Of a stretch of DNA of 63,277 nucleotides, positions 1 to 62,909 are shown in pieces. Source of the DNA: Candidatus Daviesbacteria bacterium (GTDB lineage Bacteria > Patescibacteriota > Microgenomatia > Daviesbacterales > UBA10151); the NCBI GenBank assembly GCA_016176405.1, contig JACOXG010000011.1:1-63277 (forward strand), written 5' to 3'. Within the stretch, counting starts at the first letter, position 1, and every line of letters begins with the position of its first letter. The notes beneath the pieces are model-generated. The model was not told the origin of the DNA. It made no database searches and worked only from the letters and a program-made list of their open reading frames with translations. Both the position numbers and the translations under genes were made by a program.

Positions 1-439
1 ATATTTTCTCCTTAGAATAATATACAGTTCTTTCAGCTGACCGACTGTCTCCGCTGCCATCAAAAACCGCCACGCTGATATTATTAACCCCTTCATCCAG
101 TTCTAAAACTGTGGAAAAATTTCCCTCTACAGAGGATTTAATGATCACATCTTGTGTCTCAGTCATGATTAAAACATTGGAGGATGGAGCACTCTTGCCC
201 GAAATTACCACCGATGGATCAAACACCAATAAATTATCCTCCGGCTGTTCCAGTTCCAGCCTTAAACTTTTGGGAGCGGCAGTAACTGGTTCTCCCTTTT
301 TCAGATAACCTCGATCAGCGGCTGTCTGAATATTAACCAGATAATGAAGATATCCTAAAAAGAGAAGACTAAGGATAAAAATAATCAGTTGGGCCAACAG
401 AAACTGTTTGGTAGATAATTTTTTAGTCAATTTGAGCAT
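1..439 (-). CDS. hypothetical membrane-anchored protein, C-terminal part cut by window edge
   Basis: Not in ORF track. Hand translation of the reverse strand from ATG (complement of 437-439) gives MLKLTKKLSTKQFLLAQLIIFILSLLFLGYL..., open to position 1. N-terminal TM helix. Confidence 0.55.
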   Translation of the reverse strand, partial: MLKLTKKLSTKQFLLAQLIIFILSLLFLGYLHYLVNIQTAADRGYLKKGEPVTAAPKSLRLELEQPEDNLLVFDPSVVISGKSAPSSNVLIMTETQDVIIKSSVEGNFSTVLELDEGVNNISVAVFDGSGDSRSAERTVYYSKEKI

Positions 440-500
440 TGAAGCTATTCTACCATATTGTCTCACCGCAAAAATTTTGGTAGGATTGTTCCTTGCTCCC

Positions 501-1154
501 ATGGATATCTATTGGTATGGCCAAGCCTGTTTTAAGTTGAAAGGTAAATCAACCACCATTGTGATTGACCCGTTTAGTCCTGAATTTACTGGTTTGAAAA
601 AACCTAAAGATTTAGAAGCAGATGCTATTTTAGTCACCCATGAGCATGAAGATCATAATTTCACTGATTTGGTGGCTCCCAAAGAGGGGATGATGGTGTT
701 TAGCCGTCCTGGTGAATATGAGGTGAGTGGTGCGGTGATTACTGGCATAGACTCCTTTCATGATGAATCTTTGGGTTCACAGCGCGGTTCAAATACCATT
801 TTTCATTTAATGATGGATGGATTAAATATTGTGCATTTGGGAGATCTGGGTCAAAGTAAGTTGAGCGAAGAGCAACTGACTCAGATTGGGGATGCAGATA
901 TTTTGCTGACCCCGGTAGGCTCAATCTATACTATTGATGCCAAGGCAGCCTCGGATATTGTAGCCCAGCTGGAACCAAAAATTATCATCCCCATGCATTA
1001 TTTGATTGAGGGTTTAAAGTTCCAATTAGAGGGCGTGGATAAATTTTTGAAAGAAATGGGAGTGGAAGGGGTGGTCCCACAACCCAAGTTATCCATTACA
1101 AAAGAAAAATTGCCTGAAGAACCACAGGTGATTTTGCTTGCAAAATCATCCTGA
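501..1154 (+). CDS. MBL-fold metallo-hydrolase (UPF0173-like)
   Basis: HEHEDH metal motif. MDIYWYGQACFKLKG start is typical of the family. ATG 501 is preferred because 408-500 overlaps the divergent gene at 1-439. Confidence 0.8.
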   Translation: MDIYWYGQACFKLKGKSTTIVIDPFSPEFTGLKKPKDLEADAILVTHEHEDHNFTDLVAPKEGMMVFSRPGEYEVSGAVITGIDSFHDESLGSQRGSNTIFHLMMDGLNIVHLGDLGQSKLSEEQLTQIGDADILLTPVGSIYTIDAKAASDIVAQLEPKIIIPMHYLIEGLKFQLEGVDKFLKEMGVEGVVPQPKLSITKEKLPEEPQVILLAKSS

Positions 1155-1174
1155 GCGATTAGCGAAGGATCTGG
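1146..1174 (+). repeat. single copy of the GTCATCCTGAGCG..CGAAGGATC repeat family
   Basis: TCATCCTGAGCGATTAGCGAAGGATCTGG overlaps the stop codon of the MBL gene. Related copies at 25102, 25149, 26830, 27149, 42071, 42115, 45529 and 57000. Confidence 0.7.
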
Positions 1175-18144: not shown

Positions 18145-18167
18145 TTAACTAGTACACTGATTCGCTA
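18136..18167 (+). repeat. 32-nt repeat GCTAACTAGTTAACTAGTACACTGATTCGCTA
   Basis: 31/32 identical to 26433-26464; contains the palindrome CTAGTTAACTAG and the rluA-like stop codon. Confidence 0.8.
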
Positions 18168-23123: not shown

Positions 23124-23518
23124 TAAATTATCTCTCAGAAGGTGAAGTTATAGCCATTAATTCCAAGATGGTTGCTAAATATGGTGGGTTACACGGCGTT
23201 AAGGATGTAAACCTTCTTAGTCTAGCTATTGGCAGACCACAAATGTCAGTCGGATTCCAAGATGCTTATAAAACAATTTTTGATAAAGCAGCTGCCATGT
23301 TTCATTCCATAATTAATAACCATCCTTTCTTAGACGGGAACAAAAGAACCTCGCTATTCAGTGCAGTTTTATTTCTAAAATATAACGGATGGTCCGTAGA
23401 ATTTAGAAGAAAAGAAGCTGTTAAATTTACCAGAAGAGCACACAATCAAGATTATACTGTTGAACAAATCTCCAAATGGCTAAAAGAACATTCTGTAAAA
23501 GTGCCCACAGGGTTATAA
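23099..23518 (+). CDS. doc: Fic/Doc-family toxin (death-on-curing type)
   Basis: HPFLDGNKRTS Fic motif variant typical of Doc; GTG start overlaps the antitoxin by 25 nt. Confidence 0.88.
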   Translation: MARFSRPLINYLSEGEVIAINSKMVAKYGGLHGVKDVNLLSLAIGRPQMSVGFQDAYKTIFDKAAAMFHSIINNHPFLDGNKRTSLFSAVLFLKYNGWSVEFRRKEAVKFTRRAHNQDYTVEQISKWLKEHSVKVPTGL

Positions 23519-23524
23519 ACTAGC

Positions 23525-23561
23525 TTCCCACCTTCCAAGCGGGGATGTAGAGTATTTGATC
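23525..23561 (+). repeat. intergenic copy of the TTCCCAC..GTGGGA hairpin element
   Basis: TTCCCACCTTCCAAGCGGGGATGTAGAGTATTTGATC aligns with 45436-45470 inside holB. Confidence 0.7.
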
Positions 23562-24560: not shown

Positions 24561-25094
24561 ATGATAATCCTTGGTATTGATCCTGGAACTGCCACTACTG
24601 GTTGGGGACTGATTAAAGTCCCTGATGATATATTAGGCAGGCAGTTTGAATATGGAATTGAGTTAATCAGTTATGGCAACATTTTTACTGATAAGGACAA
24701 ACCCATGGCTGAAAGACTTTGGAAATTATCCAGAGAACTGGATGATTTAATTAAGAAATATCAACCAGATCAGATAGTGACCGAGATGTTATTTTTTGGG
24801 GCTAATCTAAAAACAGCCATCATGGTGGGGCAGGCCAGGGGAATAGTCTTGATGTCCTCTGCCAAATATAGGGTACCTATTACAGAATATACTGGCTTAC
24901 AGGTAAAACTAATGGTAGCCGGAGCAGGCAGAGCTGATAAGGCTCAGGTACATGAGGGAGTAAGAAGATTTTTGGGGAGTAATGGAAGAAGACGCAAAGC
25001 TTTAAAGGTTAATTGGGTAGGAGGACATTTGGATGATGCTACAGATGCCTTGGCCATAGCAATATGCCATGTGCTGAAGCTGGTTTCGAAGTAA
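24561..25094 (+). CDS. ruvC: crossover junction endodeoxyribonuclease RuvC
   Basis: ILGIDPGTATTGWG and C-terminal DDATDALAIAICH. Confidence 0.92.
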   Translation: MIILGIDPGTATTGWGLIKVPDDILGRQFEYGIELISYGNIFTDKDKPMAERLWKLSRELDDLIKKYQPDQIVTEMLFFGANLKTAIMVGQARGIVLMSSAKYRVPITEYTGLQVKLMVAGAGRADKAQVHEGVRRFLGSNGRRRKALKVNWVGGHLDDATDALAIAICHVLKLVSK

Positions 25095-25101
25095 TGAGAA
25101 A

Positions 25102-25183
25102 CCATCCTGAGCGCTCACTAAAGAGCGCGAAGGATCTCGATCATATAGGAGATCCTTCGTCGCTAATCGCTCCTCAGGATGAC
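25102..25183. repeat. empty inverted pair of the GTCATCCTGAGCG..CGAAGGATC family
   Basis: Forward CCATCCTGAGCGCTCACTAAAGAGCGCGAAGGATCTC (25102-25138) and reverse GAGATCCTTCGTCGCTAATCGCTCCTCAGGATGAC (25149-25183). Confidence 0.8.
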
Positions 25184-25215
25184 AAACTGCGTTAAGAAAT
25201 TGTACGCAGTTTGTC
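25181..25215. other. perfect 12-bp stem-loop GACAAACTGCGT-N11-ACGCAGTTTGTC
   Basis: Read directly; no T-tract, so terminator function is uncertain. Confidence 0.6.
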
Positions 25216-25222
25216 AAATAAT

Positions 25223-25999
25223 ATGAACCTAAACAAACGCCAAAAAATAATCATTACCACCATCTTACTAACCTTAGGTTTACTTTCCACCCAGTTGGTG
25301 GATTTTAATTTAAGATTTAGATTTATTGCCGGGCTCGGCGTGGTGGCCTACTTTCTATCACTTTGGGCACTTTGGGAAGGTTTAAATAAGACCAAAGCTA
25401 TCATACTGATGATTTTGCCAACCTTTTTCACTGTGGCTGTGGCCAGTTTTTATTTTTTGCTGCCTGTCAGATGGCTGACCAGGCTGCCAGTGGCTTTATC
25501 TTTTGGTTTAACTTTCTACCTGTTACTTTTATCACAAAATGTGTTCAATGTGGCTTCAATCCGGACCATCCCACTTTATCGAGCTGCCTCTACGGCAGCT
25601 TTTCTTTTTACGCTGCTTTCAGCATTCTTTATATATAATGTAGTTTATGCTTTTAATCTGTTATTTTTTTGGAACGGGTTACTGGTGGCCTTGATTAGTT
25701 TTCCTTTAATTTTACAAGTACTTTGGTCAATAGAGATGGGGGAGAAAATTACAGCCTCAATTTTGGTTCAAGCAGCCATTTTAAGTTTAGTGATAGGGGA
25801 ACTGGCACTGGCATTCTCATTTTGGCCAATGGTTACCACCATTTGGTCTTTATCTTTATCCTCAGCCATGTATGTACTGTTAGGTTTAACCACCAATGTT
25901 TTAAGAGGCAGGGTAAATAGCAGGGTAGTGTGGGAGTATTTGGGGATAGGGGTAGTGGTTTTAATTATCAGCTTCTTTACTACCTCATGGACTGGGTGA
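25223..25999 (+). CDS. polytopic integral membrane protein, unknown function
   Basis: About 8 hydrophobic helices; ATG 25223 preferred over TTG 25211, which lies in the stem-loop. Confidence 0.65.
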   Translation: MNLNKRQKIIITTILLTLGLLSTQLVDFNLRFRFIAGLGVVAYFLSLWALWEGLNKTKAIILMILPTFFTVAVASFYFLLPVRWLTRLPVALSFGLTFYLLLLSQNVFNVASIRTIPLYRAASTAAFLFTLLSAFFIYNVVYAFNLLFFWNGLLVALISFPLILQVLWSIEMGEKITASILVQAAILSLVIGELALAFSFWPMVTTIWSLSLSSAMYVLLGLTTNVLRGRVNSRVVWEYLGIGVVVLIISFFTTSWTG

Positions 26000-26002
26000 T
26001 TA

Positions 26003-26100
26003 GATGCGAGAAGTTAGAAGTGGGAAGATGGATTATTGAGATGAGAAGTGAGATAATCACACATCATTATCCATATTCACATTTCCCATATCTCATATCT
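26003..26100. repeat. heptamer-periodic array (GANNNNN)x8 followed by six inverted-type units
   Basis: gatgcga gaagtta gaagtgg gaagatg gattatt gagatga gaagtga gataatc | acacatc attatcc atattca catttcc catatct catatct. Its reverse complement resembles 63233-63277. Confidence 0.8.
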
Positions 26101-26425
26101 GTTATAAATATCAAGAATAGAGCTATATAACAAGCTAAAGTAGAGGAGTGGAGTAAAGATTTTCCGACGAAAGCGTGAAAACTTATAGGATATTTCGTGA
26201 AAAAAAATCTATGTTATAGTATGATATATTTGCCAGGCACAAATGTGGAAAACTATGGGGTCTATTATGCCTACTCTTGGCATCCTATGTATATAATTGC
26301 TAATGTTGTTCTTTAGATAACCTCGTTATCGCAAGAACTGATAAGTTCTTACATAACCCGAAGCTCCTCGGAGAAGAGAGGTGCTCTGTCCCTTCGCAAT
26401 TTTAATGATTTAATAGTTGACTAGT

Positions 26426-26477
26426 GAAATAAGCTAACTAGTTAACTAGTCCACTGATTCGCTAGTTAGCTTATTTC
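26426..26477. repeat. perfect 16-bp inverted repeat GAAATAAGCTAACTAG-N20-CTAGTTAGCTTATTTC
   Basis: Read directly; embeds the 32-nt repeat shared with 18136-18167. Confidence 0.85.
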
Positions 26478-26829
26478 CCTCTCTTCGGTCTTCCCTATAT
26501 TATCTTGTCGGACAATGTATCTTATGCGATGTCAAAGAAGTGGTTTCCTGGAGAAGTGGCTTTGGTACAACTTAAGCATCTAATTAATGCCAAAGCCAGC
26601 GGATTTTGACTACTATATTTTGGTATCTATTTTGTTATATTCCCGACCAAAATTTTTATTAATAATTATTGCCAAATTATAAACTATATCAATTAAGTCT
26701 TTAGGGCTTTGGGACGGCCTAACCTAAGGATGACTCAATATAGCTCTTATCCCCTGAGAAGCCGTTTTTAGGCCCTTGCAAGGCTTCATGCCTAACTAGC
26801 CTCAGAAGATGTAATGGACCCCAGCCCGT

Positions 26830-27175
26830 GTCATCCTGAACGAAGTGAAGGATCTGATTAAGTGTTTAAATCATTCCAATATGGATTCATACTCATAATA
26901 AGGGAATTTTTCTTTTTTCTAGTCCACCCTTTAAGTCGTTTTTCTGCCGCAATAGCATCATTAACCTGACCAAATTCTTCATAGTATAAAAGTTTAGTGA
27001 TGTTATATTTTTTAGTAAAACCCTCAATTAATTTATTTTTATGTTCATAAATTCTTCTAGTTAGATTGTCAGTAATACCTATGTATATGACTTTATTATT
27101 AGGATTACTCATTATATAAACCCAATAGCTCATCTTTAGATATTATCAGATTCTTCGCTAATCGCTCAGAATGAC
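26830..27175 (-). mobile_element. GIY-YIG nuclease gene flanked by inverted copies of the GTCATCCTGAGCG..CGAAGGATC repeat (candidate autonomous unit)
   Basis: GTCATCCTGAACGAAGTGAAGGATC at 26830-26854. The reverse complement of 27149-27175 is GTCATTCTGAGCGATTAGCGAAGAATC. Confidence 0.45.
26858..27133 (-). CDS. GIY-YIG nuclease-domain protein (UPF0213/YhbQ-like)
   Basis: YWVYIMSN..VIYIGITDNLTRRIYEHK..E..K motifs. Confidence 0.88.
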   Translation of the reverse strand: MSYWVYIMSNPNNKVIYIGITDNLTRRIYEHKNKLIEGFTKKYNITKLLYYEEFGQVNDAIAAEKRLKGWTRKKKNSLIMSMNPYWNDLNT

Positions 27176-27258
27176 ATTCTTGATCTGTCCTTTTGTTGTC
27201 GGACAATATAACTCACTGCTTGACAGCTTGTCTTGTTTTGTTCTACTGTAAACTTATA

Positions 27259-28230
27259 GTGGAAGAAAAGCTTTTCTCCAAGAAAAACCTGATCACCTAT
27301 TTAGGTATGGCCATTTTAATTGTGGCCATTCCTCTGGCAGTCAGATTGGTCCAAACTCAACAACAATTTAAATCCCGGGCAGCCGGCGATGAGATTAAAT
27401 TTGTGGAATCTGAAACCTTAACTTGTGATGATCAGGGAGCTTGTACCACCTCATCCACCACCATTGCCATGGAGTTAACCTCACCTTTGGGTCCGCCAGG
27501 ATCAGTGACTCCTCCACCCCCACCACCTGGACCTCCGCCACCGCCTCCTCCACCAGAACCACCCCCACCACCTCCGCCCCCACCCCCACCAGCCGGGGAT
27601 TCTGCCTCTGTCACCGGTTCCCAAACAGCCATCACTGGCCAAGCAGTCACTTATACAGCCACTTTATCCGGAGCATATATCACCGGTGAAATTCATATAG
27701 CCAAAGGTGATGGATTATCTCCAGTACCAGGATGTTCCACTCCACCTCAAGACCAAGATAATAGTAAGGGAGAATATTGGTGCAGAATTGCCAGAGGAAG
27801 TGCCCCATCTTTTAGTGGGAATTTCACATTTACTGAGGCAGGTACATACAGAGTGGCTGTTAATGGGTATAAATTTGATATTAATACTACTGACTATGAT
27901 GCTACCAAAACTTGTTCTGGTAATCCTTTTGGTAGATATGATTCTGATCCCAATAAAGGTTGGGTTAGTTGTGGCCCAGAAGATGATTTAACTGTTACAG
28001 TCACCGGTTCCTCCATCACTGTTCCCACTGCCAGTCTGTCTGTTTCATCAACTTCTGTTACTCCTGGTCAAACAGTCAATGTGGCTGCCACTCTCGGTGG
28101 TACTGCTCAATATGGAGAATTATTTGTCACCAAAGGTGATGGAAAAACAGAATGGAATTGCCCAGCAGGCACAACTCGAGCCAGCGGCTGGCCAAATAGT
28201 AAAGGTGAATATTGGTGTAAATTAAACTAA
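27259..28230 (+). CDS. secreted/anchored repeat protein with 27-residue poly-proline linker
   Basis: N-terminal anchor conserved with the next gene (VRLVQTQQQFKSRAAG). Contains 1.5 copies of a NSKGEYWC..ATKTCSGNP..GWVSCGP module. GTG 27259 chosen by analogy with the paralog. Confidence 0.7.
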   Translation: MEEKLFSKKNLITYLGMAILIVAIPLAVRLVQTQQQFKSRAAGDEIKFVESETLTCDDQGACTTSSTTIAMELTSPLGPPGSVTPPPPPPGPPPPPPPPEPPPPPPPPPPPAGDSASVTGSQTAITGQAVTYTATLSGAYITGEIHIAKGDGLSPVPGCSTPPQDQDNSKGEYWCRIARGSAPSFSGNFTFTEAGTYRVAVNGYKFDINTTDYDATKTCSGNPFGRYDSDPNKGWVSCGPEDDLTVTVTGSSITVPTASLSVSSTSVTPGQTVNVAATLGGTAQYGELFVTKGDGKTEWNCPAGTTRASGWPNSKGEYWCKLN

Positions 28231-28234
28231 TAAT

Positions 28235-29224
28235 ATGAGTAACAAAATTTTAACCAAGAGAAATATTATTTTATATGTGGTTATAGCAATAATTTTGGTG
28301 GCAATCCCAGTTACCCTTAGGTTGGCGCAGACACAACAGCAACTTAAATCAAAAGCAGCAGGCGAAGGCATCACCATTAATGGTAGCTTTACCCCCCAAG
28401 AGGTAGGTACCTATATCGTGGCTGTTAATGCCTATGGTTATCCTCAAGGTTCTACTTATGATGCTACCAAAACCTGTTCTGGTAATCCTTTAAATAATTA
28501 TGATCCAGCTAACCGTGGTTGGGTAGATTGTGGACCTAATGATAATGTGACAGTAAATGTGGCTAACTTACCAGACCTAATTACTACCAACCTCAATGTT
28601 TTAGCCAATACTTCAGCAGGACTAGTAGTTGGTCTGGTCGCCAATCTGGAAGGAACCATTAAAAATCAGGGTACTGCCATGGCCTCCGCTGCCGCAGTCA
28701 GTTATAAAGTTGATAACCAACTTATTGCAGAGCAATCTACTCCTGAAATTGCTCCGAATTATGCCACCACCAAGTCTGCTGCTTGGACAGCCACCACTGC
28801 CGGTACACACACCTTTACCATTTGTGCTGATAGTAACAATGTGGTGACTGAATCTGATGAGATTAACAATTGTTCTAATCTAGAATTTACCGTGGAAGCC
28901 ACTGCTCCTCCCCCACCACCGCCTCCACCAGCCAATTCTATCAATGGTACAGCCTATTGGTTTTCCAGTGGTGGTTGGTGGGTGCCGGATAGTAATATCA
29001 CCGTTACTGTCTACATTGGCAGTACGGTGGTAGCTACAGGTATTTCGGGTACAGATGGAATCTATTCAGTCACCAATGTACCAGCTGGTACTTATACAGT
29101 CACAGGTGAAACAAATATCACTGGTCAATACTTAGGTGGTGGTTACTACAGTGATGTTAAAAATAATATTACTGTGACAGATGGTCAAGCCACCACCAAT
29201 GTGAACTTATACTTATTGCCATGA
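28235..29224 (+). CDS. secreted/anchored protein: module remainder + CARDB-like + carboxypeptidase-regulatory-like domain
   Basis: PDLITTNLNV..IKNQGTAMA..ESDEINN (CARDB pattern), poly-Pro linker, GTDGIYSVTNVPAGTYTV. Confidence 0.75.
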   Translation: MSNKILTKRNIILYVVIAIILVAIPVTLRLAQTQQQLKSKAAGEGITINGSFTPQEVGTYIVAVNAYGYPQGSTYDATKTCSGNPLNNYDPANRGWVDCGPNDNVTVNVANLPDLITTNLNVLANTSAGLVVGLVANLEGTIKNQGTAMASAAAVSYKVDNQLIAEQSTPEIAPNYATTKSAAWTATTAGTHTFTICADSNNVVTESDEINNCSNLEFTVEATAPPPPPPPPANSINGTAYWFSSGGWWVPDSNITVTVYIGSTVVATGISGTDGIYSVTNVPAGTYTVTGETNITGQYLGGGYYSDVKNNITVTDGQATTNVNLYLLP

Positions 29225-31422
29225 AAAAAATATTTTTAATTATATTTAGCTTGATAGTAATGTTTAGTTTTGTAAGTCCTGTAAATGCAGGACATGAATG
29301 TCCAAATGCTTTCAATTTCTGTGGTTCTGATGGTAATCTCTGGCAAGACAGATGTGACCCTTATGATCATGTTCAAATTCAGGATTGTGGTGGTAGAGGG
29401 TGTAGTAATGGACAATGTGTTGGATCTACAGCCCCCCCACCTCCCCCACCCCCTGGTGGAACCAGTACCTGTACCACCGGAGTTTGTAATACAGTTTCCT
29501 GTAGAAGTTTGGAACCTTCTGAAACAGGTACAGTGGGCGGAGATGTCTGTGATGCTAACCATATCTGGCAAGCAGATTGTTCTAAGACATGTAGTACCAA
29601 TGCTGAGTGTCCTCAGAATACAGATCAGCCTGATTATATCAATGCTTCTACCAGTGCTTGGTGTTATGAGTTTAAAGATGATGATGGTGATACTACCAAT
29701 AATAATCGTTGCCTACAATTAAGATTTGATGGATTTGGTAACCCCAGTTGTGGTGGAACTGGAGGTTCATGTACTCTAGGTAGGCAATCACCAACTGTGA
29801 CAGATGCTTGTGCCAGCTGTATAGTAGGTCAAAGATCTGATCTTAGAACATTTTATAATGATAATGGTCATAGTGCCTGCTCAAGTGTCCAAATAGTTAA
29901 TGATTGGTGCAACGGAGTAGATCCAAATAGTTGTAACAGTGTAAAGTCCGGTGCTTGTGCCTCTTCTTGCGGTGGGACTGGAACAAGACCTGCTTTATGT
30001 CAAAGTATGAGCATTAGTCAAAGTTCCATAAGTAGTGGGCAAACTGTCACTATTACCTCAACAGCCAATACTACTGTCTCTAAATTTATGTATGCATTTT
30101 ATAACAATGATCACCGTGATCCGTCAACCACTACCCCCCAACCTATCTATTACGAGGGATCTACCCACTATACTCCAACAGATACTAGAACAGCTACCTC
30201 TGATACTCAAACATTCAGTTATGAGGAACTAGCACGTCCTGATCATAATTTCTCTGATCAAGTTCCTTCAAGCATTCAGATTAATGGCTACTTTTTTGAT
30301 TCAGCTGGTAATCAATCAGCAGCAGATGCAAATTGTGTAGTACAGTTGGCAGTGGCCGCACCTGCCCCAAGTGCATCCATTGCTCCTACTGAACCCCCTC
30401 CCCCACCTGAGGGAACTGTGTGTTATTCTGTTGCCGAAAGCGAAGCAGCTTTGGCCACAGATTGTTCACAATCCAATGCTCTCTCTTACAATGAACATCC
30501 TAAACTAACTACCTATACCCTACAAGACCAAACTCCTGGGGTTAAAAGAATCTATGTCAGATTTATTGGAACCAAGGGGACTCTCAGTACTCATTTTAAA
30601 GACATCACTTATCAAATTCCAGCTCAAATCAGCAATCTGGTTTGTCATTATGGCACCACTGGTAGCAAGACCGAAGCCACCATCAAAGGTACTAATTTTG
30701 GGGCTCAAGGAACCAATTCCAAAGTCACCATTTCCGGCCAAAATGCCACCATCACCACTTGGGACGGCATAGATACCATTGTAGCTTCCATTAACAGTAA
30801 GCCAGAAGGACAATTAACAGTTGAGGTGACCACTAATGATGGTAGAACTGTTTCTTCAACCTGTACAGTTGGTTTAACCACAGTTTCCTTTAATGCCAAA
30901 AATCAGTGTAAGCAAACCGGTAAATTTGATGCCTCGGATGTGTCTGTGAAGATTTATGATCTAATTTCCAGCGTGACCAAGCCAATTGTTGATCAAAAGG
31001 TCAGTCTGGAAGCAAAAGAGGGAGCTGCTCAAGGATTTAATCCCCAGCTGGAGATTGGTAAGGATTATGCCATAAGTGTGGATGCTCCACAAACTCTGAC
31101 TGAGGTGGTTCAATTTAAGGCAGAAGAAGGCACCACGGTTTTACCAGATATTATCTTACCACCTGGTGATATTTCCGGTAGAGGGGCCACTGTTGGTGCA
31201 TCTGATGGAGTGATTAATTCTGTTGACTACTCTGAGATGGTCAGACAATGGAATCTGGTCCAGGATGTGACCAGAACTGGTGATCTTAATGCAGATAAAA
31301 GAGTTAACAGTGTGGATTATTCCTGTATGGTTTTAAATTTCAATGATTCGGATGAGAAAATACCAGAAGCTACTTCTTCTGCTCAGCTAACATCAAGTGA
31401 CAATTCTAGCAGTTTGTTCTAA
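29221..31422 (+). CDS. large Cys-rich secreted protein with IPT/TIG-like domain and C-terminal dockerin-like repeats
   Basis: Signal peptide, many Cys, EATIKGTNFG..VTISGQNATITTW (IPT/TIG pattern), GDLNADKRVNSVDYSCMV calcium-loop repeat. Confidence 0.75.
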   Translation: MKKIFLIIFSLIVMFSFVSPVNAGHECPNAFNFCGSDGNLWQDRCDPYDHVQIQDCGGRGCSNGQCVGSTAPPPPPPPGGTSTCTTGVCNTVSCRSLEPSETGTVGGDVCDANHIWQADCSKTCSTNAECPQNTDQPDYINASTSAWCYEFKDDDGDTTNNNRCLQLRFDGFGNPSCGGTGGSCTLGRQSPTVTDACASCIVGQRSDLRTFYNDNGHSACSSVQIVNDWCNGVDPNSCNSVKSGACASSCGGTGTRPALCQSMSISQSSISSGQTVTITSTANTTVSKFMYAFYNNDHRDPSTTTPQPIYYEGSTHYTPTDTRTATSDTQTFSYEELARPDHNFSDQVPSSIQINGYFFDSAGNQSAADANCVVQLAVAAPAPSASIAPTEPPPPPEGTVCYSVAESEAALATDCSQSNALSYNEHPKLTTYTLQDQTPGVKRIYVRFIGTKGTLSTHFKDITYQIPAQISNLVCHYGTTGSKTEATIKGTNFGAQGTNSKVTISGQNATITTWDGIDTIVASINSKPEGQLTVEVTTNDGRTVSSTCTVGLTTVSFNAKNQCKQTGKFDASDVSVKIYDLISSVTKPIVDQKVSLEAKEGAAQGFNPQLEIGKDYAISVDAPQTLTEVVQFKAEEGTTVLPDIILPPGDISGRGATVGASDGVINSVDYSEMVRQWNLVQDVTRTGDLNADKRVNSVDYSCMVLNFNDSDEKIPEATSSAQLTSSDNSSSLF

Positions 31423-36882: not shown

Positions 36883-37518
36883 TTATACTTCCTCAAATTT
36901 GGCATTTTTGTAAAATTTTGGGCCTGATTCTAGAATAAATTCTTTGGGATCGCCTCTGTCTAAATTTATGATTCCATCTAAATGATCAATTTCGTGTTGA
37001 AAAACTCTATTTAGCTTTTTGCCCAACAGAGTATGGTGCTTGGTTTTCCATTCTTGCAGCTGACCCATTTCATCAAAATATTCAAACTCAATCCAGGTAG
37101 GTCTGATTAAAGGTACAATTACTGGATTAGCACTCATACACATTTCAGGGTACTTATTCTTTTCCTTTGAAAATTTAGTAATTTTGGGATTAATGATGGT
37201 AACTAGCTTCCCACTTGACGAGTGGGAATTCGGATTATAGATGACGGCAAATCTCTCATGAATTCCCACTTGAGGAGCAGCAATTCCTCTACCCATGCCA
37301 GTTAGTTTTCTATATTTTAGTAAACAATTTTTTAAATATTTAATTTTTTGCTGAAAAATTTTAGAAGTAATTTGATTGACCGGAACTGGTTTTGAGGACT
37401 GTCTTAAAATAGGAGACTCCCCTATTTGATAAATAAAATTAGAAACCAAAGCCGCCCTCTCAAAAACTTTAACTTTGTATTTCCTAAATGGAGCTAAATC
37501 TGGTTTCCAAGATTTCAT
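36883..37518 (-). CDS. def: peptide deformylase
   Basis: GRGIAAPQVG, EMCMS and HEIDHLDG motifs. Contains the in-frame hairpin 37208-37228. Confidence 0.9.
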   Translation of the reverse strand: MKSWKPDLAPFRKYKVKVFERAALVSNFIYQIGESPILRQSSKPVPVNQITSKIFQQKIKYLKNCLLKYRKLTGMGRGIAAPQVGIHERFAVIYNPNSHSSSGKLVTIINPKITKFSKEKNKYPEMCMSANPVIVPLIRPTWIEFEYFDEMGQLQEWKTKHHTLLGKKLNRVFQHEIDHLDGIINLDRGDPKEFILESGPKFYKNAKFEEV

Positions 37519-39025: not shown

Positions 39026-40415
39026 ATTTTCTGCCTCTATCAAATTCATTTTGGAATAAATTAAAAGAAGTAGCTGCTGGGGAAAAGAGAATGATATCCC
39101 CTTTTTTGACTATTTCTTTTACATCAATAAGTAATTTTTCTAAATCATCATAAGTCCCTGCTATTAAATCTTTGTTTTTCATTAATTTTTTAATTTGATC
39201 CGTAGAATCTCCTTCTAAAAAGAAAACTTTCTTGACAGAATTCCCTACGATCGTTGCATATTTTGTATAGTCCATTCCTTTGTTCATCCCTCCACAAATT
39301 AGGATACACCCTGGAAATGTTTTGATGGCTTGAATCCCCGCTTCAGGGGAAGTGGCAGTTGTATCATTGATAATTTTGACTCCATTCCAAACCTTGATAA
39401 GTTCCATCCGAAATGAGATACCTTTAAAATGTAATGTAACCTCCAAAATGGTTTCTTCATCCATCCCAAACGTCTTGGTTATAGCAAAAGCAGCTGCTAT
39501 GTTTTCTAAGTTATGTTCCCCCTTCAATCTTGGTTTAAAATCTTTAGGAAGGTCCTCTTTTGAAAAATAAATTATTTGAGCCTTTAATCCTTTTAGGAAG
39601 TTAGGTTTACTGGTTATTGGATCAAATTTTTTTAAAAATAAGTAATCAGACTTTGTTTGGTATTTTCCTATTATTATTTTTGACTGAATATATTCTTCCA
39701 TGGTTTGGTAATAATTAAGGTGGTCAGGTGTAATGTTGGTGATCACAGCCCACTTGGGAGAAACCTTATGTTGCTCGAAAGCTTCCAGCTGAAATGAGGA
39801 AATTTCTAAAACTACCAGAGTATCTGGTTTAACATGAGGTATGGTATCCAAAACACTTTTACCAATGTTTCCTGCTAAAATTATATTATTCCATGTATGT
39901 ATGCGTTGTACATGCCCGGCATGGGTTAGCTTGACATGCCAGGATTTTGCCAGATATTTGTTCAAAACATCATAAATCAAGGAAGCTATAGTGGATTTGC
40001 CTTTGGTGCCGGTGATTCCAATAATTTGAGAAGGTTTTACAAAATCTAGAAAAATTCCCATGTCTTGTTGTACCTTTTTGCCCTGTTTTCTAGCATATTC
40101 AATATGAACATTCCCAGGTTTTACAGCAGGATTTTTAATGATTAGATCAGCCCACTCTATATCCTCATTTTTATGTTCACCTAAAGTATAGGTAATATTG
40201 GGAAAGCTTTTTAATTGATCTAATGAGAGCTTAAGAATCTGTTTTGATTTTAAATCAGTTACTCTAACTGTTGCCCCCTGTTGGGCAAAAAATTTAGCAG
40301 ATCCCACTCCACCCTGATTTAACCCCAAGCCAAAGATAAGAACCCGCGTTCCACGGAACCTTGCCTTTTTGCTTCGCAAAAACGTAAGTACCTTCTTTCC
40401 TTTAAATTCATCCAT
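38982..40415 (-). CDS. murD: UDP-N-acetylmuramoylalanine--D-glutamate ligase
   Basis: GITGTKGKST P-loop; Mur ligase middle and C-terminal domains. Confidence 0.9.
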   Translation of the reverse strand: MDEFKGKKVLTFLRSKKARFRGTRVLIFGLGLNQGGVGSAKFFAQQGATVRVTDLKSKQILKLSLDQLKSFPNITYTLGEHKNEDIEWADLIIKNPAVKPGNVHIEYARKQGKKVQQDMGIFLDFVKPSQIIGITGTKGKSTIASLIYDVLNKYLAKSWHVKLTHAGHVQRIHTWNNIILAGNIGKSVLDTIPHVKPDTLVVLEISSFQLEAFEQHKVSPKWAVITNITPDHLNYYQTMEEYIQSKIIIGKYQTKSDYLFLKKFDPITSKPNFLKGLKAQIIYFSKEDLPKDFKPRLKGEHNLENIAAAFAITKTFGMDEETILEVTLHFKGISFRMELIKVWNGVKIINDTTATSPEAGIQAIKTFPGCILICGGMNKGMDYTKYATIVGNSVKKVFFLEGDSTDQIKKLMKNKDLIAGTYDDLEKLLIDVKEIVKKGDIILFSPAATSFNLFQNEFDRGRKFNKAVEKVFGANIS

Positions 40416-40437: not shown

Positions 40438-41244
40438 ATGAATAACAATCCAATTGGCATATTTGATTCAGGGATCGGTGGTTTAACAGTTGTTAAGGAA
40501 ATTTTAAAAGAATTACCCAGTGAAAATATTATTTATCTAGGTGATACAGCCAGAGTGCCTTATGGCACTAGAGGTAAGGAAGTTATCACTAAATTTGCTT
40601 TGGATCTGGCCAATTTCCTTTTAAAAAAGAAAGTCAAATTTTTAGTAGTTTCTTGTAATACCATTTCCTCTATCTGTTTGGATGTAATTGAATATATTTC
40701 CCCTGTGCCAGTTCTGGGAGTTATCCAACCGGCTGTAGATGAAGCCTTAAAGACTACCAGATCTGGTGTAATAGGGGTAATAGGAACTCCTGCCACCATT
40801 GCTTCTAAAATTTATGAGAAAAAACTTAAAAGGAAAAATCCCAAATTAAAAGTAAAGACTGTCTCCTGTCCTTTATTTGTGCCTCTGGCTGAAGAGGGAT
40901 TGATAAATCATGCTGCCACTAAATTGGTAGCCAAAGAATATCTTAAAGGATTCAAAAATAATGGAATTGATACTTTAATTTTGGGTTGCACTCACTATCC
41001 CATCCTAAGATCCATTATCCAGCAAACAGTTGGACCAAAAGTAACTTTGATTGATTCAGCCAAACCTACGGCCAAAAAACTGAACGAGCTTTTAGAAGAA
41101 AAAAATTTACTAAGAAGTGAGGAAAAAGTTAGGCATGAGTTTTTTGTGACAGATGCACCAGAGAGGGTGTATAAAGTGGCTGACAATTTTTTTGGCGATC
41201 ACCTAAATGGGAAGTTAAAAGAGATTAACCTACCAATTGCTTAG
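40438..41244 (+). CDS. murI: glutamate racemase
   Basis: IGIFDSGIGGLTV and LGCTHYP catalytic Cys motifs; ATG 40438 preferred. Confidence 0.92.
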   Translation: MNNNPIGIFDSGIGGLTVVKEILKELPSENIIYLGDTARVPYGTRGKEVITKFALDLANFLLKKKVKFLVVSCNTISSICLDVIEYISPVPVLGVIQPAVDEALKTTRSGVIGVIGTPATIASKIYEKKLKRKNPKLKVKTVSCPLFVPLAEEGLINHAATKLVAKEYLKGFKNNGIDTLILGCTHYPILRSIIQQTVGPKVTLIDSAKPTAKKLNELLEEKNLLRSEEKVRHEFFVTDAPERVYKVADNFFGDHLNGKLKEINLPIA

Positions 41245-42604
41245 CAATTTTATCTATATCCCCTGCTCCCATGAAAAAGATAATATCACCACTTTGAACA
41301 TGGTGTTTAAGCATTGGTATTATTTGGTCCTTGGTATGATAGACTAGATTACTTGACCCAACTGCCTCTACTAATTGTTTTGAAGTAACTAAACCTGTGT
41401 CCACTTCCCTACTTGGATAAATATCAGTAATAATTATTTTGTCCACAGGTAATTCTTTAAATACTTTGACAAAATCATCAAAAAGGGCTTTTGTTCTAGA
41501 AAACATGTGGGGTTGATAAATTAAAATAATTCTATTTTTAGGAAATTTTTCCCTGGCAGCTTGCATGGTGGTTTTTATTTCTGTTGGGTGATGTCCAAAA
41601 TCAGAATAAACCTTAGCTCCCACTTGTCCTGAGCTTGTCGAAGGATGGTACTCCCCAATATACTCAAATCTTCTGCCTATTCCAGGGTAATTGGATAAAC
41701 TTTTTTGAATAGTTTGTGGACTAATTCCTAAAAGAAGTCCAACTTGATAAGCTGCTGAGGCATTCCATCTGTTAAATTCACCAGGAATCTCTAAGGAAAA
41801 ATCTATGGGTTTCTTTGAATAATCTAAAGTTATATTGCCACCCTTGGGGTGGACATTCAGAATTTCTGTTACTACAGGATCCGAAAGATTGGCCACAATG
41901 GTCTGTTTTGTGGATTCCAAGAATTTTTTAAAACTATCTTTGTACGAATCAAAATCCTGAAAATACTCCGGATGATCCATTTCAATATTGGTGACAACTG
42001 AAATATCAGGAGAGGTTGCTAAAAAATTATCATTAAACTCATCAGCTTCAACTAGGAAAAAACCCTTTTTGTCATCTCGAGTGATTAACGAGAGATCTCT
42101 AGATTTTGAATCATGAGATTCCTCACTTCGTTCGGAATGACGTGAGGAAATTCTGTAATTTGCTTTCCACCAAGGGACTATGGTTCCTAGTTCCACCGTA
42201 GGATCTAGCCCAGCATCCTCTAAAATTTTAGCAATCATGGCAGTGGTGGTAGTTTTACCATGAGTTCCACAAACAGCTATTACAAATTTATCCTTCATTA
42301 AATACTTTCCCATAAACTCCTGCCAAGTAAGAATAGGAATTTCCCCCCCCTTTGCCTCTAAAAGTTCTGGATTATTGGGATCTAAAGAGTATATGGCAGG
42401 TGTTACTGCCAATATATCTACGTTCCCACTTTTCAAGTGGGAAGCTGAATGCCCTTGGGATAACTTGACACTTCCGATGTGTAAAGTGAATTCGTTGTTT
42501 GGCTCAAGGTCACAGCCACTAACTTCAAATCCATAAGCTTTTGCAATAGCTGCAGCAGCAGATGCTCCAGACCCCCCAATTCCTAAAAAATGTACTTTTT
42601 TCAT
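41225..42604 (-). CDS. murC: UDP-N-acetylmuramate--L-alanine ligase
   Basis: GIGGSGASA, GTHGKTTT, EADEF, NIEMDH, GHHPTE motifs. Carries repeat insertions. Confidence 0.93.
   Translation of the reverse strand: MKKVHFLGIGGSGASAAAAIAKAYGFEVSGCDLEPNNEFTLHIGSVKLSQGHSASHLKSGNVDILAVTPAIYSLDPNNPELLEAKGGEIPILTWQEFMGKYLMKDKFVIAVCGTHGKTTTTAMIAKILEDAGLDPTVELGTIVPWWKANYRISSRHSERSEESHDSKSRDLSLITRDDKKGFFLVEADEFNDNFLATSPDISVVTNIEMDHPEYFQDFDSYKDSFKKFLESTKQTIVANLSDPVVTEILNVHPKGGNITLDYSKKPIDFSLEIPGEFNRWNASAAYQVGLLLGISPQTIQKSLSNYPGIGRRFEYIGEYHPSTSSGQVGAKVYSDFGHHPTEIKTTMQAAREKFPKNRIILIYQPHMFSRTKALFDDFVKVFKELPVDKIIITDIYPSREVDTGLVTSKQLVEAVGSSNLVYHTKDQIIPMLKHHVQSGDIIFFMGAGDIDKIAKQLVG
42071..42141. repeat. in-frame inverted pair of the GTCATCC..GGATC family inside murC
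   Basis: GTCATCTCGAGTGATTAACGAGAGATCTC (42071-42099) and GAGATTCCTCACTTCGTTCGGAATGAC (42115-42141), translated as SRHSERSEESHDSKSRDLSLITRDD. Confidence 0.8.
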
Positions 42605-44870: not shown

Positions 44871-45524
44871 TTATTTGGAGGGCATCACCAGCATTAAATA
44901 TTCCAAAATGGCCCGGATATTGACATTTTGATTGGCCCATTCTTCAGCCTGCAGTAATTCTTTTATAAAATCTGTGCTCCCACTTTGAATGTGGGAAGCT
45001 AGATTTTTATGAAAATAATTTACTAAGGCATATAAAAATTCTTCTCTATCCTTTAGTTTTTCAATGTATTCAAATCTTTCTTCTATGCTTATTCTTAAAA
45101 GTCTTTCAATATCAGCTATATAGATACCAACCCCCGGTGTTGGATAGCTTGAAACCTCGGGTATATGGATAACCTGGCAGCGTGAGATGATAGTGGGTAA
45201 CAACTTTGACTCATTATCCACCCCCAAAATAAAAAGCCCCTCCTTCGGTAGTTCCTCAAGGGTTTTTAACAGGGCATTTTGGGCCTCAATTGTCAAATTA
45301 GAAGCATCTTCCAAAACGACTGCTCTGCCTTTGGCAGAATATGGTTTTAGGGAAAAATGTTCTTTAATTTTTCTGGCCTCAGCAATTCCTAATTTAGAAT
45401 CAGCATTAAAATATAAAACATCCGGATGATTTGTATTCCCACTTCCCAAGTGGGAACGTAGAGTTTGATCAATTTCTTTTTTGATATCTTCTAAAGATGG
45501 TGAAATCAAAAGTTTGGCTATCAT
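44871..45524 (-). CDS. holB: DNA polymerase III delta-prime-like subunit (short form)
   Basis: EAQNALLKTLEELP and SRCQVIHI motifs. 217 aa. Contains three repeat-derived segments. Confidence 0.78.
   Translation of the reverse strand: MIAKLLISPSLEDIKKEIDQTLRSHLGSGNTNHPDVLYFNADSKLGIAEARKIKEHFSLKPYSAKGRAVVLEDASNLTIEAQNALLKTLEELPKEGLFILGVDNESKLLPTIISRCQVIHIPEVSSYPTPGVGIYIADIERLLRISIEERFEYIEKLKDREEFLYALVNYFHKNLASHIQSGSTDFIKELLQAEEWANQNVNIRAILEYLMLVMPSK
45126..45163 (+). repeat. REP copy (ACCAACCCCCGGTGTTGGATAGCTTGAAACCTCGGGTA) inside holB
   Basis: Same element as at 52932, 53684 (inverted) and 62874; translated as IPEVSSYPTPGVGI. Confidence 0.8.
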
Positions 45525-52931: not shown

Positions 52932-53727
52932 CCAACCCCCGGTGTCAACACCCGGGGTTTAATAGCTTGAAACCTAAGGATATTTTGTGGTAATGTAGCC
53001 TTATGCCATACCGTAAGACTCCCCTATCCCAAGGAGAGATTTATCACATCTTCAATCGCAGTGTTGCCAGACAACCCATCTTTTTAGGAAATAGAGATTA
53101 TCAAAGAGCTTTGGAGACGATCAGATTTTATCTCTTTTCCGGAGCTCATTTAAGTTTCTCCCATTATGACAGGTTACCTCTGCAACAACGCTCTGATTTT
53201 ATGAAAAAACTGGAAGAGTCAAATGAAAGGCAGATAGAAATCTTTGCTTACTGTCTCATGCCAAATCACCTCCATTTCTTAATGAAGTGCCTAAGGGATA
53301 AAGGTATTAGCAATTTCATGAATTGGTTGCAAAATAGCTACGCCAAATACTTCAATATTAAAACGGAGAGAAGTGGGGCTTTATTCCAATCAATGTTTAA
53401 GGCAGTCAGAATTGAATCAGATGAACAATTCATCCATGTGGGGCGTTATATCCATCTTAATCCCTTAACTGCCTATATTATAAAAAACTCAGCCCAACTA
53501 GAGAACTATCCATGGTCTTCCTTTGCAGAGTATCTGGATAATCAGGATCCCAAAATTATCAGCAGAGAGCTCATGTTAGGTCACTTCTCTTCCGTAGAAG
53601 CCTTTAAAAGATTCACTTTTGATCAAATAGATTATCAAAGAAAATTAGCCGAAATTAAACACTTACTAAATGAGTAAACTTTGGATTTTCCTTAGGTTTC
53701 TATTCAACCAACCCCCGGTGTTGGTTT
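52932..53727 (+). mobile_element. RAYT (REP-associated Y1 transposase) unit with flanking inverted REPs
   Basis: Left REP 52932-52980 and inverted right REP 53684-53727 bracket the IS200-like gene. Confidence 0.75.
53003..53677 (+). CDS. IS200-like/REP-associated tyrosine transposase (RAYT)
   Basis: HIFNRSVARQPIF, HUH motif in CLMPNHLHFLM, catalytic Tyr region GRYIHLNPL. Confidence 0.88.
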   Translation: MPYRKTPLSQGEIYHIFNRSVARQPIFLGNRDYQRALETIRFYLFSGAHLSFSHYDRLPLQQRSDFMKKLEESNERQIEIFAYCLMPNHLHFLMKCLRDKGISNFMNWLQNSYAKYFNIKTERSGALFQSMFKAVRIESDEQFIHVGRYIHLNPLTAYIIKNSAQLENYPWSSFAEYLDNQDPKIISRELMLGHFSSVEAFKRFTFDQIDYQRKLAEIKHLLNE

Positions 53728-56999: not shown

Positions 57000-57037
57000 G
57001 TCATCCTGAGGAGCCATAAAGGCGACGAAGGATCTGG
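57000..57037 (+). repeat. single copy of the GTCATCCTGAG..CGAAGGATC family
   Basis: GTCATCCTGAGGAGCCATAAAGGCGACGAAGGATCTGG between two pilin-like genes. Confidence 0.75.
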
Positions 57038-57042
57038 AAATT

Positions 57043-57441
57043 ATGTCAAATGAAAAAGGTCTTTCCCTCATTGAAGTACTGCTGATCATTGCCATCATTG
57101 GGGTAACAGTCATACTTTTAGCCAATATTCCCAATGCCATGAATTTAATTACCAGAAGCAGACATACCTCTTTAGCCAGAGAAATTGCCACCAAACAAAT
57201 TGAAGATAAAAGAGCGGTAAATTATATAAATTTGGCTAATGGTTCCTCAAATATTAGCGATTCCCGAATGAGTCAACTTCCCCAAGGATCAGGTACTATT
57301 TTAATCGAAGATTGCGATCTGTCAGTTTGCACCAACTCAGAAGCCATTAAAACAATTACCGTCACTGTCAATTGGTTAAATAACAGTAAACCACAGACTC
57401 TGACCTTAACTACTTTTATTGGCCAAGGAGGACTACAGTGA
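57043..57441 (+). CDS. minor pilin / pseudopilin
   Basis: KGLSLIEVLLIIAIIGV motif. Confidence 0.75.
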   Translation: MSNEKGLSLIEVLLIIAIIGVTVILLANIPNAMNLITRSRHTSLAREIATKQIEDKRAVNYINLANGSSNISDSRMSQLPQGSGTILIEDCDLSVCTNSEAIKTITVTVNWLNNSKPQTLTLTTFIGQGGLQ

Positions 57442-62175: not shown

Positions 62176-62871
62176 TTACAAAAGGTCTGGCCTGACCTTT
62201 TTAGTCTTCTTAATAGCTTGTTCTTTTCTCCATTTAGCAATTTTTTGATGGTTTCCAGAAAGTAGGATAGCAGGAACTTTTTTACCTTCAAATATTTCTG
62301 GTCTGGTATATTGAGGATGCTCTAGTAATTTGTAATTTGGAATTTGAAATTTGAAATTTGAGAATGATTCATTCTGTGTGGCTTCCTCCTTTTCAAGAAC
62401 TCCAGGGATTAATCTCACCACAGAATCCACAATTACCATGGCAGGAATTTCTCCACCAGTTAAAACATAGTCTCCAATAGAGATTTCCAAATCTACGTAT
62501 TCATCTATAAATCTTTGATCAACTCCTTCGTAATGCCCACAGACTATGATTAAATGTTCTATTTTTGATAGTCTTTGGGCATCTGATTGTTTGTAAGGTT
62601 TACCTGATGCAGAGGTGAGGATAACTTTCCCCTTTCCCCTTTCCCCTTTCCCCTTTTTTAATGCCTTAGCCAAAATATCAGCTCTTAGAACCATTCCTGC
62701 TCCCCCACCATAGACTCTATCATCTACAACTTTATGTTTTCCTTCACCAAAGTCTCTTAAATTAATAAGTTCAAATTTGACCATGCCTTTTTGTTGGGCT
62801 CTTTTAAGGATAGATGAATTTAATATGGGATCAAAAACTTGGGGGAAAAGAGTGATTATAGATATCTTCAT
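62176..62871 (-). CDS. trmD: tRNA (guanine37-N1)-methyltransferase
   Basis: YGGGAGMVL, VCGHYEGVDQR, LTGGE motifs. Contains two heptamer arrays. Confidence 0.95.
   Translation of the reverse strand: MKISIITLFPQVFDPILNSSILKRAQQKGMVKFELINLRDFGEGKHKVVDDRVYGGGAGMVLRADILAKALKKGKGERGKGKVILTSASGKPYKQSDAQRLSKIEHLIIVCGHYEGVDQRFIDEYVDLEISIGDYVLTGGEIPAMVIVDSVVRLIPGVLEKEEATQNESFSNFKFQIPNYKLLEHPQYTRPEIFEGKKVPAILLSGNHQKIAKWRKEQAIKKTKKVRPDLL
62180..62201. terminator. stem-loop AAAAGGTC-N6-GACCTTTT at the pilO/trmD convergence
   Basis: 8-bp perfect stem with a T-run on the 3' arm; lies in the last codons of trmD. Confidence 0.4.
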
Positions 62872-62873
62872 GT

Positions 62874-62909
62874 AAACACCGGGTGTTGGTTAGCTTGAAA
62901 CCTCGGGAT
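62874..62909 (+). repeat. REP copy overlapping the 3' end of the KH-domain gene
   Basis: AAACACCGGGTGTTGGTTAGCTTGAAACCTCGGGAT. The reverse strand reads ..NPEVSS-stop. Confidence 0.8.

Follow-up and report, generated by a model that had tools for sequence, protein, structure and literature searches.

In-frame insertion of an inverted pair of REP-type hairpin units, probably a tolerated passenger, in murC of a Daviesbacteria genome

We analysed a 63-kb stretch of DNA from a Candidatus Daviesbacteria bacterium (hereafter the window), in which murC, the gene for UDP-N-acetylmuramate--L-alanine ligase, contains an inverted repeat pair that is read through in frame. A sequence-only reading had placed this pair at 42071-42141, taken it for a forward and a reverse copy of a GTCATCC..GGATC family, and proposed that it adds about 25 residues to a peptidoglycan ligase that nevertheless keeps its frame; the coordinates, the peptide and the length arithmetic are all correct. 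We consider it very probable that the insert is a non-autonomous inverted pair of the repetitive extragenic palindromic (REP) type that was copied into murC and persists there as a tolerated passenger. In-frame insertion of palindromes is already known from Rickettsia and other bacteria, and a case from the candidate phyla radiation (CPR) is apparently unreported. New here are the CPR host lineage, the recurrence of insertions at given loops of MurC, and the broad distribution of the repeat unit among phyla. The features of the insert and its host gene are as follows (handles beginning with L denote related loci, those beginning with P denote MurC orthologs).

41225..42604, minus strand: murC, host gene of the insert (open reading frame, PDB matches, Pfam, AlphaFold)
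42070..42142, minus strand: whole inverted pair including the outer tag bases (cGTCAT...ATGACa), 73 nt; aligns with L008 gyrB, L007 murC and metagenome copies
42115..42141, minus strand: unit A, 27 nt, GTCATTCCGAACGAAGTGAGGAATCTC, forward on the coding strand; covariance model 38.5 bits, E 3.4e-7
42100..42114, minus strand: spacer, 15 nt, atgattcaaaatcta on the coding strand, coding for part of HDSKS
42071..42099, plus strand: unit B, 29 nt, GTCATCTCGAGTGATTAACGAGAGATCTC, reverse relative to murC; covariance model 41.3 bits, E 7.1e-8
42074..42148, minus strand: 25 extra codons, approximately residues 153-177, SSRHSERSEESHDSKSRDLSLITRD, against a 4-residue GKGK turn (protein and codon alignments)

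The pair is 71 nt long, or 73 nt counting the tag bases, and its order on the coding strand is cGTCATTCCGAACGAAGTGAGGAATCTC (42141..42115), the spacer, and GAGATCTCTCGTTAATCACTCGAGATGACa, the reverse complement of GTCATCTCGAGTGATTAACGAGAGATCTC. Unit A has a CGTC tag, the stem ATTCC/GGAAT, a tandem G.A and the loop GAA; its exact 27-mer pattern is unique, with 0.00 chance occurrences expected. Unit B has a TGTC tag, the stem ATCTC/GAGAT, a tandem G.A and the loop GATTA. Across the site the coding strand reads aat tac aga att tcc tca cGT CAT TCC GAA CGA AGT GAG GAA TCT Cat gat tca aaa tct aGA GAT CTC TCG TTA ATC ACT CGA GAT GAC aaa aag ggt ttt ttc, with the units in capitals. The translation of the repeat pair is RHSERSEESHDSKSRDLSLITRDD, and the peptide of the insert region is SRHSERSEESHDSK. 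The extra residues coincide base for base with the two units, as their matching length had suggested, with boundaries of the 25 codons that are ambiguous by a few nucleotides. Only one of the six reading frames of the pair lacks a stop codon, and this is the frame in use; 22 of the 25 residues of the insert peptide are polar or charged. Three other accounts, namely an intein, an intron and translational bypass, were weighed and set aside, since the 75 nt are open in frame with no stop; true membership of a repeat family and the lack of matching take-off and landing codons also speak against them.

The survey of the repeat family covered the 63 kb of the window, and a motif search without a pairing requirement, a pairing scan and a covariance model (R1) gave an identical census. 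The covariance model found eight units with E-values from 1.5e-8 to 1.8e-5, the next match having an E-value of 0.34. Both MurC units are among the eight, consistent with the family assignment of the sequence-only reading. The eight units fall at six places, five of them intergenic; six units lie between open reading frames (ORFs), the MurC pair being the exception. Inverted pairs occur twice, in MurC and at 25101..25183. The intergenic members are:

1145..1173, plus strand: family unit; covariance model E 2.3e-8
25101..25183: inverted pair (25101-25138 plus; 25149-25183 minus); covariance model E 1.8e-5 and 1.4e-6
26830..26856, plus strand: unit with the loop type of MurC unit A, GAACGAAGTGA; covariance model E 8.2e-8
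27147..27175, minus strand: unit with the stem variant ATTCT/AGAAT; covariance model E 1.5e-8
57000..57036, plus strand: unit with a nested extra G.A layer; covariance model E 2.8e-6

The intergenic pair is flanked by ORFs 24561..25094 and 25211..25999; the unit at 26830..26856 is identical over 26 nt to L007:2931-2956; and the unit at 57000..57036 lies directly upstream of ORF 57043..57441, its subtype being found also upstream of gyrB in L002. Within the unit at 1145..1173, the TGA at 1152-1154 is the stop codon of ORF 408..1154, so that this unit may supply the end of that ORF.

All units follow one plan: (C/T)GTC, AT plus three bases, GA, two bases, a loop, two complementary bases, GA, three complementary bases, AT, and a conserved 3-nt tail, CT(C/G) or, more broadly, CT(C/G/T). 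The stem has nine stacked positions, comprising five Watson-Crick pairs, the tandem G.A/A.G (two of the nine positions, both non-canonical) and two further pairs. In an alignment of 13 units, taken from the window and from related loci, pairing holds in 96.7% of cells and five of seven pairs are changed on both sides; none of 500 shuffles reached the observed pairing, and slid controls paired in 16-46% of cells. The A-U and U-A pairs at the first two stem positions are invariant in 13/13 units. The tags of the eight window units are CGTC (two), TGTC (four) or degenerate (AATC and AACC). The loop is GATTA (5 nt) in three window units including unit B, or four if the nested 25149-25183 is counted, and GAA (3 nt) in two including unit A; the others are longer nested hairpins. 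Both MurC units are stem variants of the commonest stem in the window, ATCCT/AGGAT. Rfam at its gathering threshold matched only tRNA across the whole window, and at permissive E-values gave chance-level matches in 25000-27300 and 41980-42240, with no family for the element.

We then compared the site with 120 MurC orthologs (alignment A1), the best matches being Candidatus Daviesbacteria MurC. The consensus at the site is NYR(I/V)-GKGK-YFV(I/V)EADEF. From the invariant N149 to the invariant E186 there are 36 residues in the window protein and 11 in 81 of the 120 orthologs, an excess of 25 residues or 75 nt; these 81 have the minimal 4-residue turn, and the turn of the window protein is the longest of all. 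Its two nearest relatives differ here: P0003 lacks an insert, and P0002 carries another (LTLSERSESNG). Another ortholog, P0005, has near-identical flanking codons (tgg tgg aaa gca aat tac aga att) followed by a plain turn, ggt aac ggg aga. An ancestral extension unrelated to the repeat would fit poorly with these data, the insert being absent from most orthologs and coincident with repeat units. Because 81 of 120 orthologs, including one of the two nearest relatives, have the minimal turn, the insert is derived relative to the orthologs and not ancestral. It is kept in no ortholog. Extra residues at this turn occur in 39/120 orthologs and are of at least four sequence types (RHPERSEGS, LxLSERSESNG, PVLSGAEG and xQKVHDRE), the carriers of each type being scattered in a neighbour-joining tree; MurC length varies at other loops too. 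The xQKVHDRE type, a +5-aa variant of the turn, is present in 23/120 orthologs, and a similar motif is found in a second loop.

The host gene has all the features of MurC. The 459-aa protein matches E. coli MurC (2F00) in a PDB sequence search with an E-value of 4e-68, and the HMMER alignment splits between query residues 144/152 and 181/182. The three Mur ligase domains (PF01225, PF08245 and PF02875), the P-loop GTHGKTT, the EADE motif and the MurC fold are all present, the ORF is full length, and 63/63 columns that are invariant across the 120 sequences are intact. An AlphaFold model built with alignment A1 had a mean pLDDT (per-residue confidence) of 90.5 and a pTM (global fold confidence) of 0.91, and superposed on H. 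influenzae MurC (1P3D) with a TM score of 0.86 and an rmsd of 2.1, predicting a core fold that is preserved despite the insert. In the model the insert is coil with pLDDT 47-54, a low-confidence loop at the turn between strands 148-151 and 182-186; pLDDT is below 50 at residues 160-165 and 167-172. The neighbourhood gyrB-murC-murI-murD is the same as in L002, L004 and L005.

The insertion is not a one-off: in other Daviesbacteria, palindromic inserts are found in the same loop of MurC and in several others. In L007, the murC of P0016 contains a GAA-loop unit and a GATTA-loop unit, again paired with the tags outside, at a different site in MurC, after GHLPSHLY. This element is read in the same frame as that of the window (CHPERSEGSSMNGEDSSLITQNDK versus RHSERSEESHDSKSRDLSLITRDDK) and likewise has one open frame of six, the one used. 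A pair in L008 gyrB belongs to the same subfamily by stem and spacer, its stems being ATTCC/GGAAT and ATCTT/AAGAT and its spacer, related to that of the window, GGAATCTCAAGATT..TCTAGAGATCT; both this pair and the metagenome copies have spacers that follow AWGATT..TCTA. A metagenome scan for the spacer gave ten stretches with tGTCATTCCGA...GGAATCTCAAGATTA..TCTAGAGATCTCTCGCTACGCTCGAGATGACA, none of them in a long open frame. Pairs of non-identical units are seen in the window, L007 and L008, and the MurC pair is one recurring two-unit element. Model R1 also identified pairs within further genes, in addition to intergenic ones. The in-frame inverted pairs at related loci are:

L008:9110-9211, in gyrB
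L008:10220-10285, in murC
L008:13555-13608, in a murL-like gene
L002:14985-15074, in gyrA

We fetched the DNA of nine murC genes, eight of which bear inserts. In the 17 lineage-specific inserts of these eight Daviesbacteria genes, the DNA folds better than in conserved windows taken from each gene itself (median rank 0.06, Fisher p 1.4e-10). Some MurC inserts, such as AATTCGCGGCCGCGAATT in L007, are simply palindromes; the +5-aa variant of the turn and the similar motif of the second loop (A1 columns 297-312 and 401-418; L006 and L007 murC) are coded by short palindromes, perfect or nearly so, among them AATTCGCGGCCGCGAATT and GACGGCCGTC. Beyond Daviesbacteria, a genome scan with the pattern TCATCCTGAGCG-N3-9-CGAAGGATC gave at least 120 stretches (loci L009-L128). 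The matches listed come from Chloroflexota, Acidobacteriota, Saccharibacteria, Omnitrophota, Planctomycetota, Bacillota, Bacteroidota, Cyanobacteria, Alphaproteobacteria and others. Among these listed matches, 21 of 143 units have 60 or more codons of open frame on each side, units often form plus/minus (inverted) pairs 20-90 nt apart, and the unit TGTCATCCTGAGCG-NAG-CGAAGGATCT is almost invariant in sequence across more than 10 phyla, including the isolate Hymenobacter glaciei.

We propose that the element is a non-autonomous inverted pair of two non-identical CGTC/TGTC-tagged REP-type hairpin units that would have been copied into murC as a single unit. The landing site would be the tip of a beta-hairpin turn, GKGK in orthologs, that precedes the strand with EADE in the central ATP-binding domain. 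Three properties may have allowed the insert to persist: it sits in the sole stop-free frame of six, it encodes a very polar 25-residue peptide, and it occupies a surface turn that is probably tolerant of extra length. MurC would then be made with an extra flexible loop and, judging by the model, most likely still works. We infer that the insert is translated and that the enzyme is active; the insert itself would be selfish or neutral passenger DNA with no functional module, moved probably as single-stranded hairpin DNA by an enzyme acting in trans. The sequence-only reading called the element MITE-like (a miniature inverted-repeat transposable element); an inverted REP-type element of two units is a better description than a classical MITE, neither a target-site duplication nor a parent insertion sequence (IS) having been seen.

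Several observations weigh against this reading. No cognate transposase or parent IS with matching ends was found in the window, and no target-site duplication in the flanks of the intragenic and intergenic copies. Databases held no near-identical genome with an empty site; the insertion event itself was not caught, because the closest non-self MurC is only 71% identical. Folding energies were no better than those of shuffled sequences, either for a 101-nt RNA (z -1.41) or for units A and B as DNA (z -0.08 and -0.17), the unit at 25101-25138 being the sole exception; for this reason it is covariation, and not predicted stability, that supports the hairpin. The 13-unit alignment includes some units from outside the window that came from the scan that requires pairing. 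The neighbour-joining tree is star-like, with no support values. Finally, the window, P0118 and P0008 share the nucleotide at which the element begins, which could reflect shared descent as opposed to separate insertions.

This last point bears on the possibility that a single ancient REP insertion at the turn was inherited by the window, P0008, P0028, P0030, P0057 and P0118, and was later trimmed to a single unit in some of these, with its sequence overwritten by gene conversion from the repeats of each genome, which we regard as unlikely. The shared start (c|GTCAT, 7 nt after the codon following NYR) would be expected under such a history, as would the collinearity between the entire insert of P0030 (PSHRHPERSEGSHD, then YF) and the opening half of the window peptide (SSRHSERSEESHD). 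However, the carriers are scattered among insert-free sequences, all of the GKGK type, so that many exact restorations would be required. Moreover, the unit subfamilies differ per genome (loop GAA, GCA or CTTGA; G.A or Watson-Crick pairs), and the frame of the reverse unit in P0118 differs from that in the window. The H-frame requires phase 1, and a 4-codon turn offers only ~4 such positions; hence a common start nucleotide is plausible as a coincidence under selection.

It is improbable that the insert was recruited as a functional addition, whether as a protein loop with a role in regulation or interaction, or as an mRNA or DNA hairpin controlling murC expression. REPs have been proposed to act as RNA elements (PMC3733652), and all stem differences between the MurC units and the intergenic units of the window are compensated. 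However, the variant stems are found also in L008 gyrB and in intergenic metagenome copies, which marks the compensated differences as features of subfamilies, not of selection in place. In addition, the insert is conserved in no ortholog and modelled as disordered, and a promoter and terminator scan of murC gave no such site at the repeat pair, which also has no Rfam match. It is very improbable that the insertion killed MurC and left the ORF as a young pseudogene: the 25-aa insert is large and ends a short way ahead of the strand running into the EADE motif, but the ORF is full length, all 63 invariant residues are kept, the model gives the core fold high confidence, the neighbouring genes are conserved, and 39/120 orthologs bear extra residues at the same turn. 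Least credible is a repeat spliced into murC by mis-assembly, since, although assemblers can be misled by short repeats and the window probably represents a contig from a metagenome assembly, the MurC frame continues on both flanks with conserved residues intact, and comparable in-frame inserts occur in independent NCBI, ENA and Logan assemblies.

We return to the reading of the insert as a tolerated REP-type passenger, which extends repeat-as-protein cases in essential genes, described earlier for Rickettsia, Opitutus and others, to a small-genome CPR lineage. Most lineage-specific loop insertions in Daviesbacteria MurC appear to be hairpin DNA, which matters for the annotation, alignment and phylogeny of CPR proteins, and the inserts map permissive loops of MurC, an antibiotic target. 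The near-invariant unit across many phyla gives the search for the enzyme behind the spread of CGTC-type REPs a concrete substrate. A more far-reaching possibility, which we put forward tentatively and consider doubtful, is that Daviesbacteria, and perhaps the CPR more widely, are undergoing a Rickettsia-like palindrome colonisation of essential genes (murC, gyrB, gyrA and the murL-like gene), that most length variation among orthologs is in-frame hairpin DNA, and that the same-nucleotide insertions in MurC reflect a targeted mechanism of the CGTC/TGTC hairpin. If insertion were targeted in this way, how CGTC REPs move would become directly testable. GyrB is 632 aa long in the window and 689 aa in L008, at the two ends of the observed length range.

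The window contains further repeats and segments, among them:

53003..53677, plus strand: gene for a Y1 transposase resembling REP-associated tyrosine transposases (RAYT-like); Pfam Y1_Tnp 43.2 bits
42416-42446 (inside murC), 23518-23548, 37201-37231, 44970-45000 and 45429-45459: copies of a second hairpin family, TTCCCAC-loop-GTGGGAA

The RAYT-like gene is syntenic with L006:734-1384 (tblastn E 6e-59, 45% identical). It is flanked at 52932-52985 and 53689-53723 by inverted copies of a hairpin repeat, CCAACCCCCGGTGTTGG..TAGCTTGAAACCTAAGGA, further copies of which lie at 45114-45161, 62860-62907 and 39907-39949; gene and flanking repeats form a REPtron-like arrangement in a CPR genome. As a mover of the murC repeat the gene is unsupported, the repeats that flank it being of a different family. 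The TTCCCAC hairpins are mostly followed by GTAG and resemble a GTAG-type REP. The copy inside murC encodes ASHLKSGN and leaves the length of the window protein unchanged; L006 and L008 murC have the same hairpin at that place (ASHIGSGN). Elsewhere in murC, a segment at 41620-41650 (residues 321-328, PSTSSGQV) adds 8 aa and is shared among the 120 orthologs only by P0005. Its reverse complement, CTTGTCCTGAGCTTGTCGAAGGATGG, resembles a family unit by eye; the segment was rejected as such, with a non-significant model E-value of 6.5. A 48-nt inverted repeat with the core AACTAGTTAACTAGT has arms at 18115-18162 and 26428-26475, 8.3 kb apart and 79% complementary, each partly palindromic itself. 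Imperfect CCACC/CCTCC-rich repeats at 27506-27610, 28899-28930 and 29423-29463, inside large ORFs of 27193..31422, code for Pro- or Gly-rich tracts depending on the strand and resemble low-complexity regions of surface proteins.

Neither the DNA and peptide strings nor REPs in Patescibacteria/CPR gave anything relevant in the literature library searched. We compared the element with four known systems. Bacterial MITEs (Correia, ERIC, BOX and others) are likewise small and non-autonomous, with inverted ends and in-frame fusion to host ORFs; the window element differs in lacking a target-site duplication or a parent IS in the window, and in consisting of two independent hairpin units. REPINs, doublets of GTAG REPs moved by RAYTs, also act as one unit built of an inverted hairpin doublet, and the window does encode a RAYT-like Y1 transposase. 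By contrast, the tag here is CGTC/TGTC, not GTAG, and the RAYT-like gene is flanked by another repeat. Rickettsia palindromic elements (RPEs; Ogata et al., 2000, Science 290:347), as summarised in PMC10969869 and PMC3733652, are in-frame palindromes in many unrelated, essential genes, whose peptide segments are compatible with the fold of the host protein. Set against these summaries, the likeness is a functional analogy, an in-frame palindromic insert in an essential gene; RPE-1 is ~150 bp and specific to Rickettsia, whereas the pairs described here are 66-102 bp, are built from 27-37-nt units and occur in another phylum.

The closest counterpart is the CGTC-tagged REPs (Di Nocera, De Gregorio and Rocco, 2013, BMC Genomics 14:522; PMC3733652), of which Rickettsia RPE-4 and RPE-6 and Neisseria dRS3 are members. 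Their tag is CGTC, TGTC or CCTC, the stem has 8-9 bp beginning with A-T then T-A, the loop has 4-5 nt, and the 3-nt tail has the consensus CCA. They are mostly intergenic, frequently form dimers, often of non-identical units, have no dedicated transposase, and encode 20-30 residues where the dimers are intragenic (PMC3733652). The window family shares with them the unpaired terminal tag, a stem of ~9 positions that begins with A-T then T-A and, in part, the short loop and the short unpaired tail; it is likewise multi-copy and mostly intergenic, with inverted non-identical pairs, no flanking transposase within the 63 kb, and an intragenic pair that adds 20-30 residues. It differs in its host, which belongs to a group (CPR, Daviesbacteria-like) outside the coverage of PMC3733652, in the conserved tandem G.A/A.G of the stem, in its GAA, GATTA or nested loops, and in its tail, CT(C/G) as opposed to CCA. 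Agreement thus extends to tag, stem, copy number, dimers and the lack of a transposase, and in part to loop and tail. Judged by the published description, as opposed to the four published consensus sequences, the window units appear to match the CGTC/TGTC-tagged REP superfamily, and the murC insert appears to be an intragenic CGTC-type REP dimer, analogous to the RPEs.

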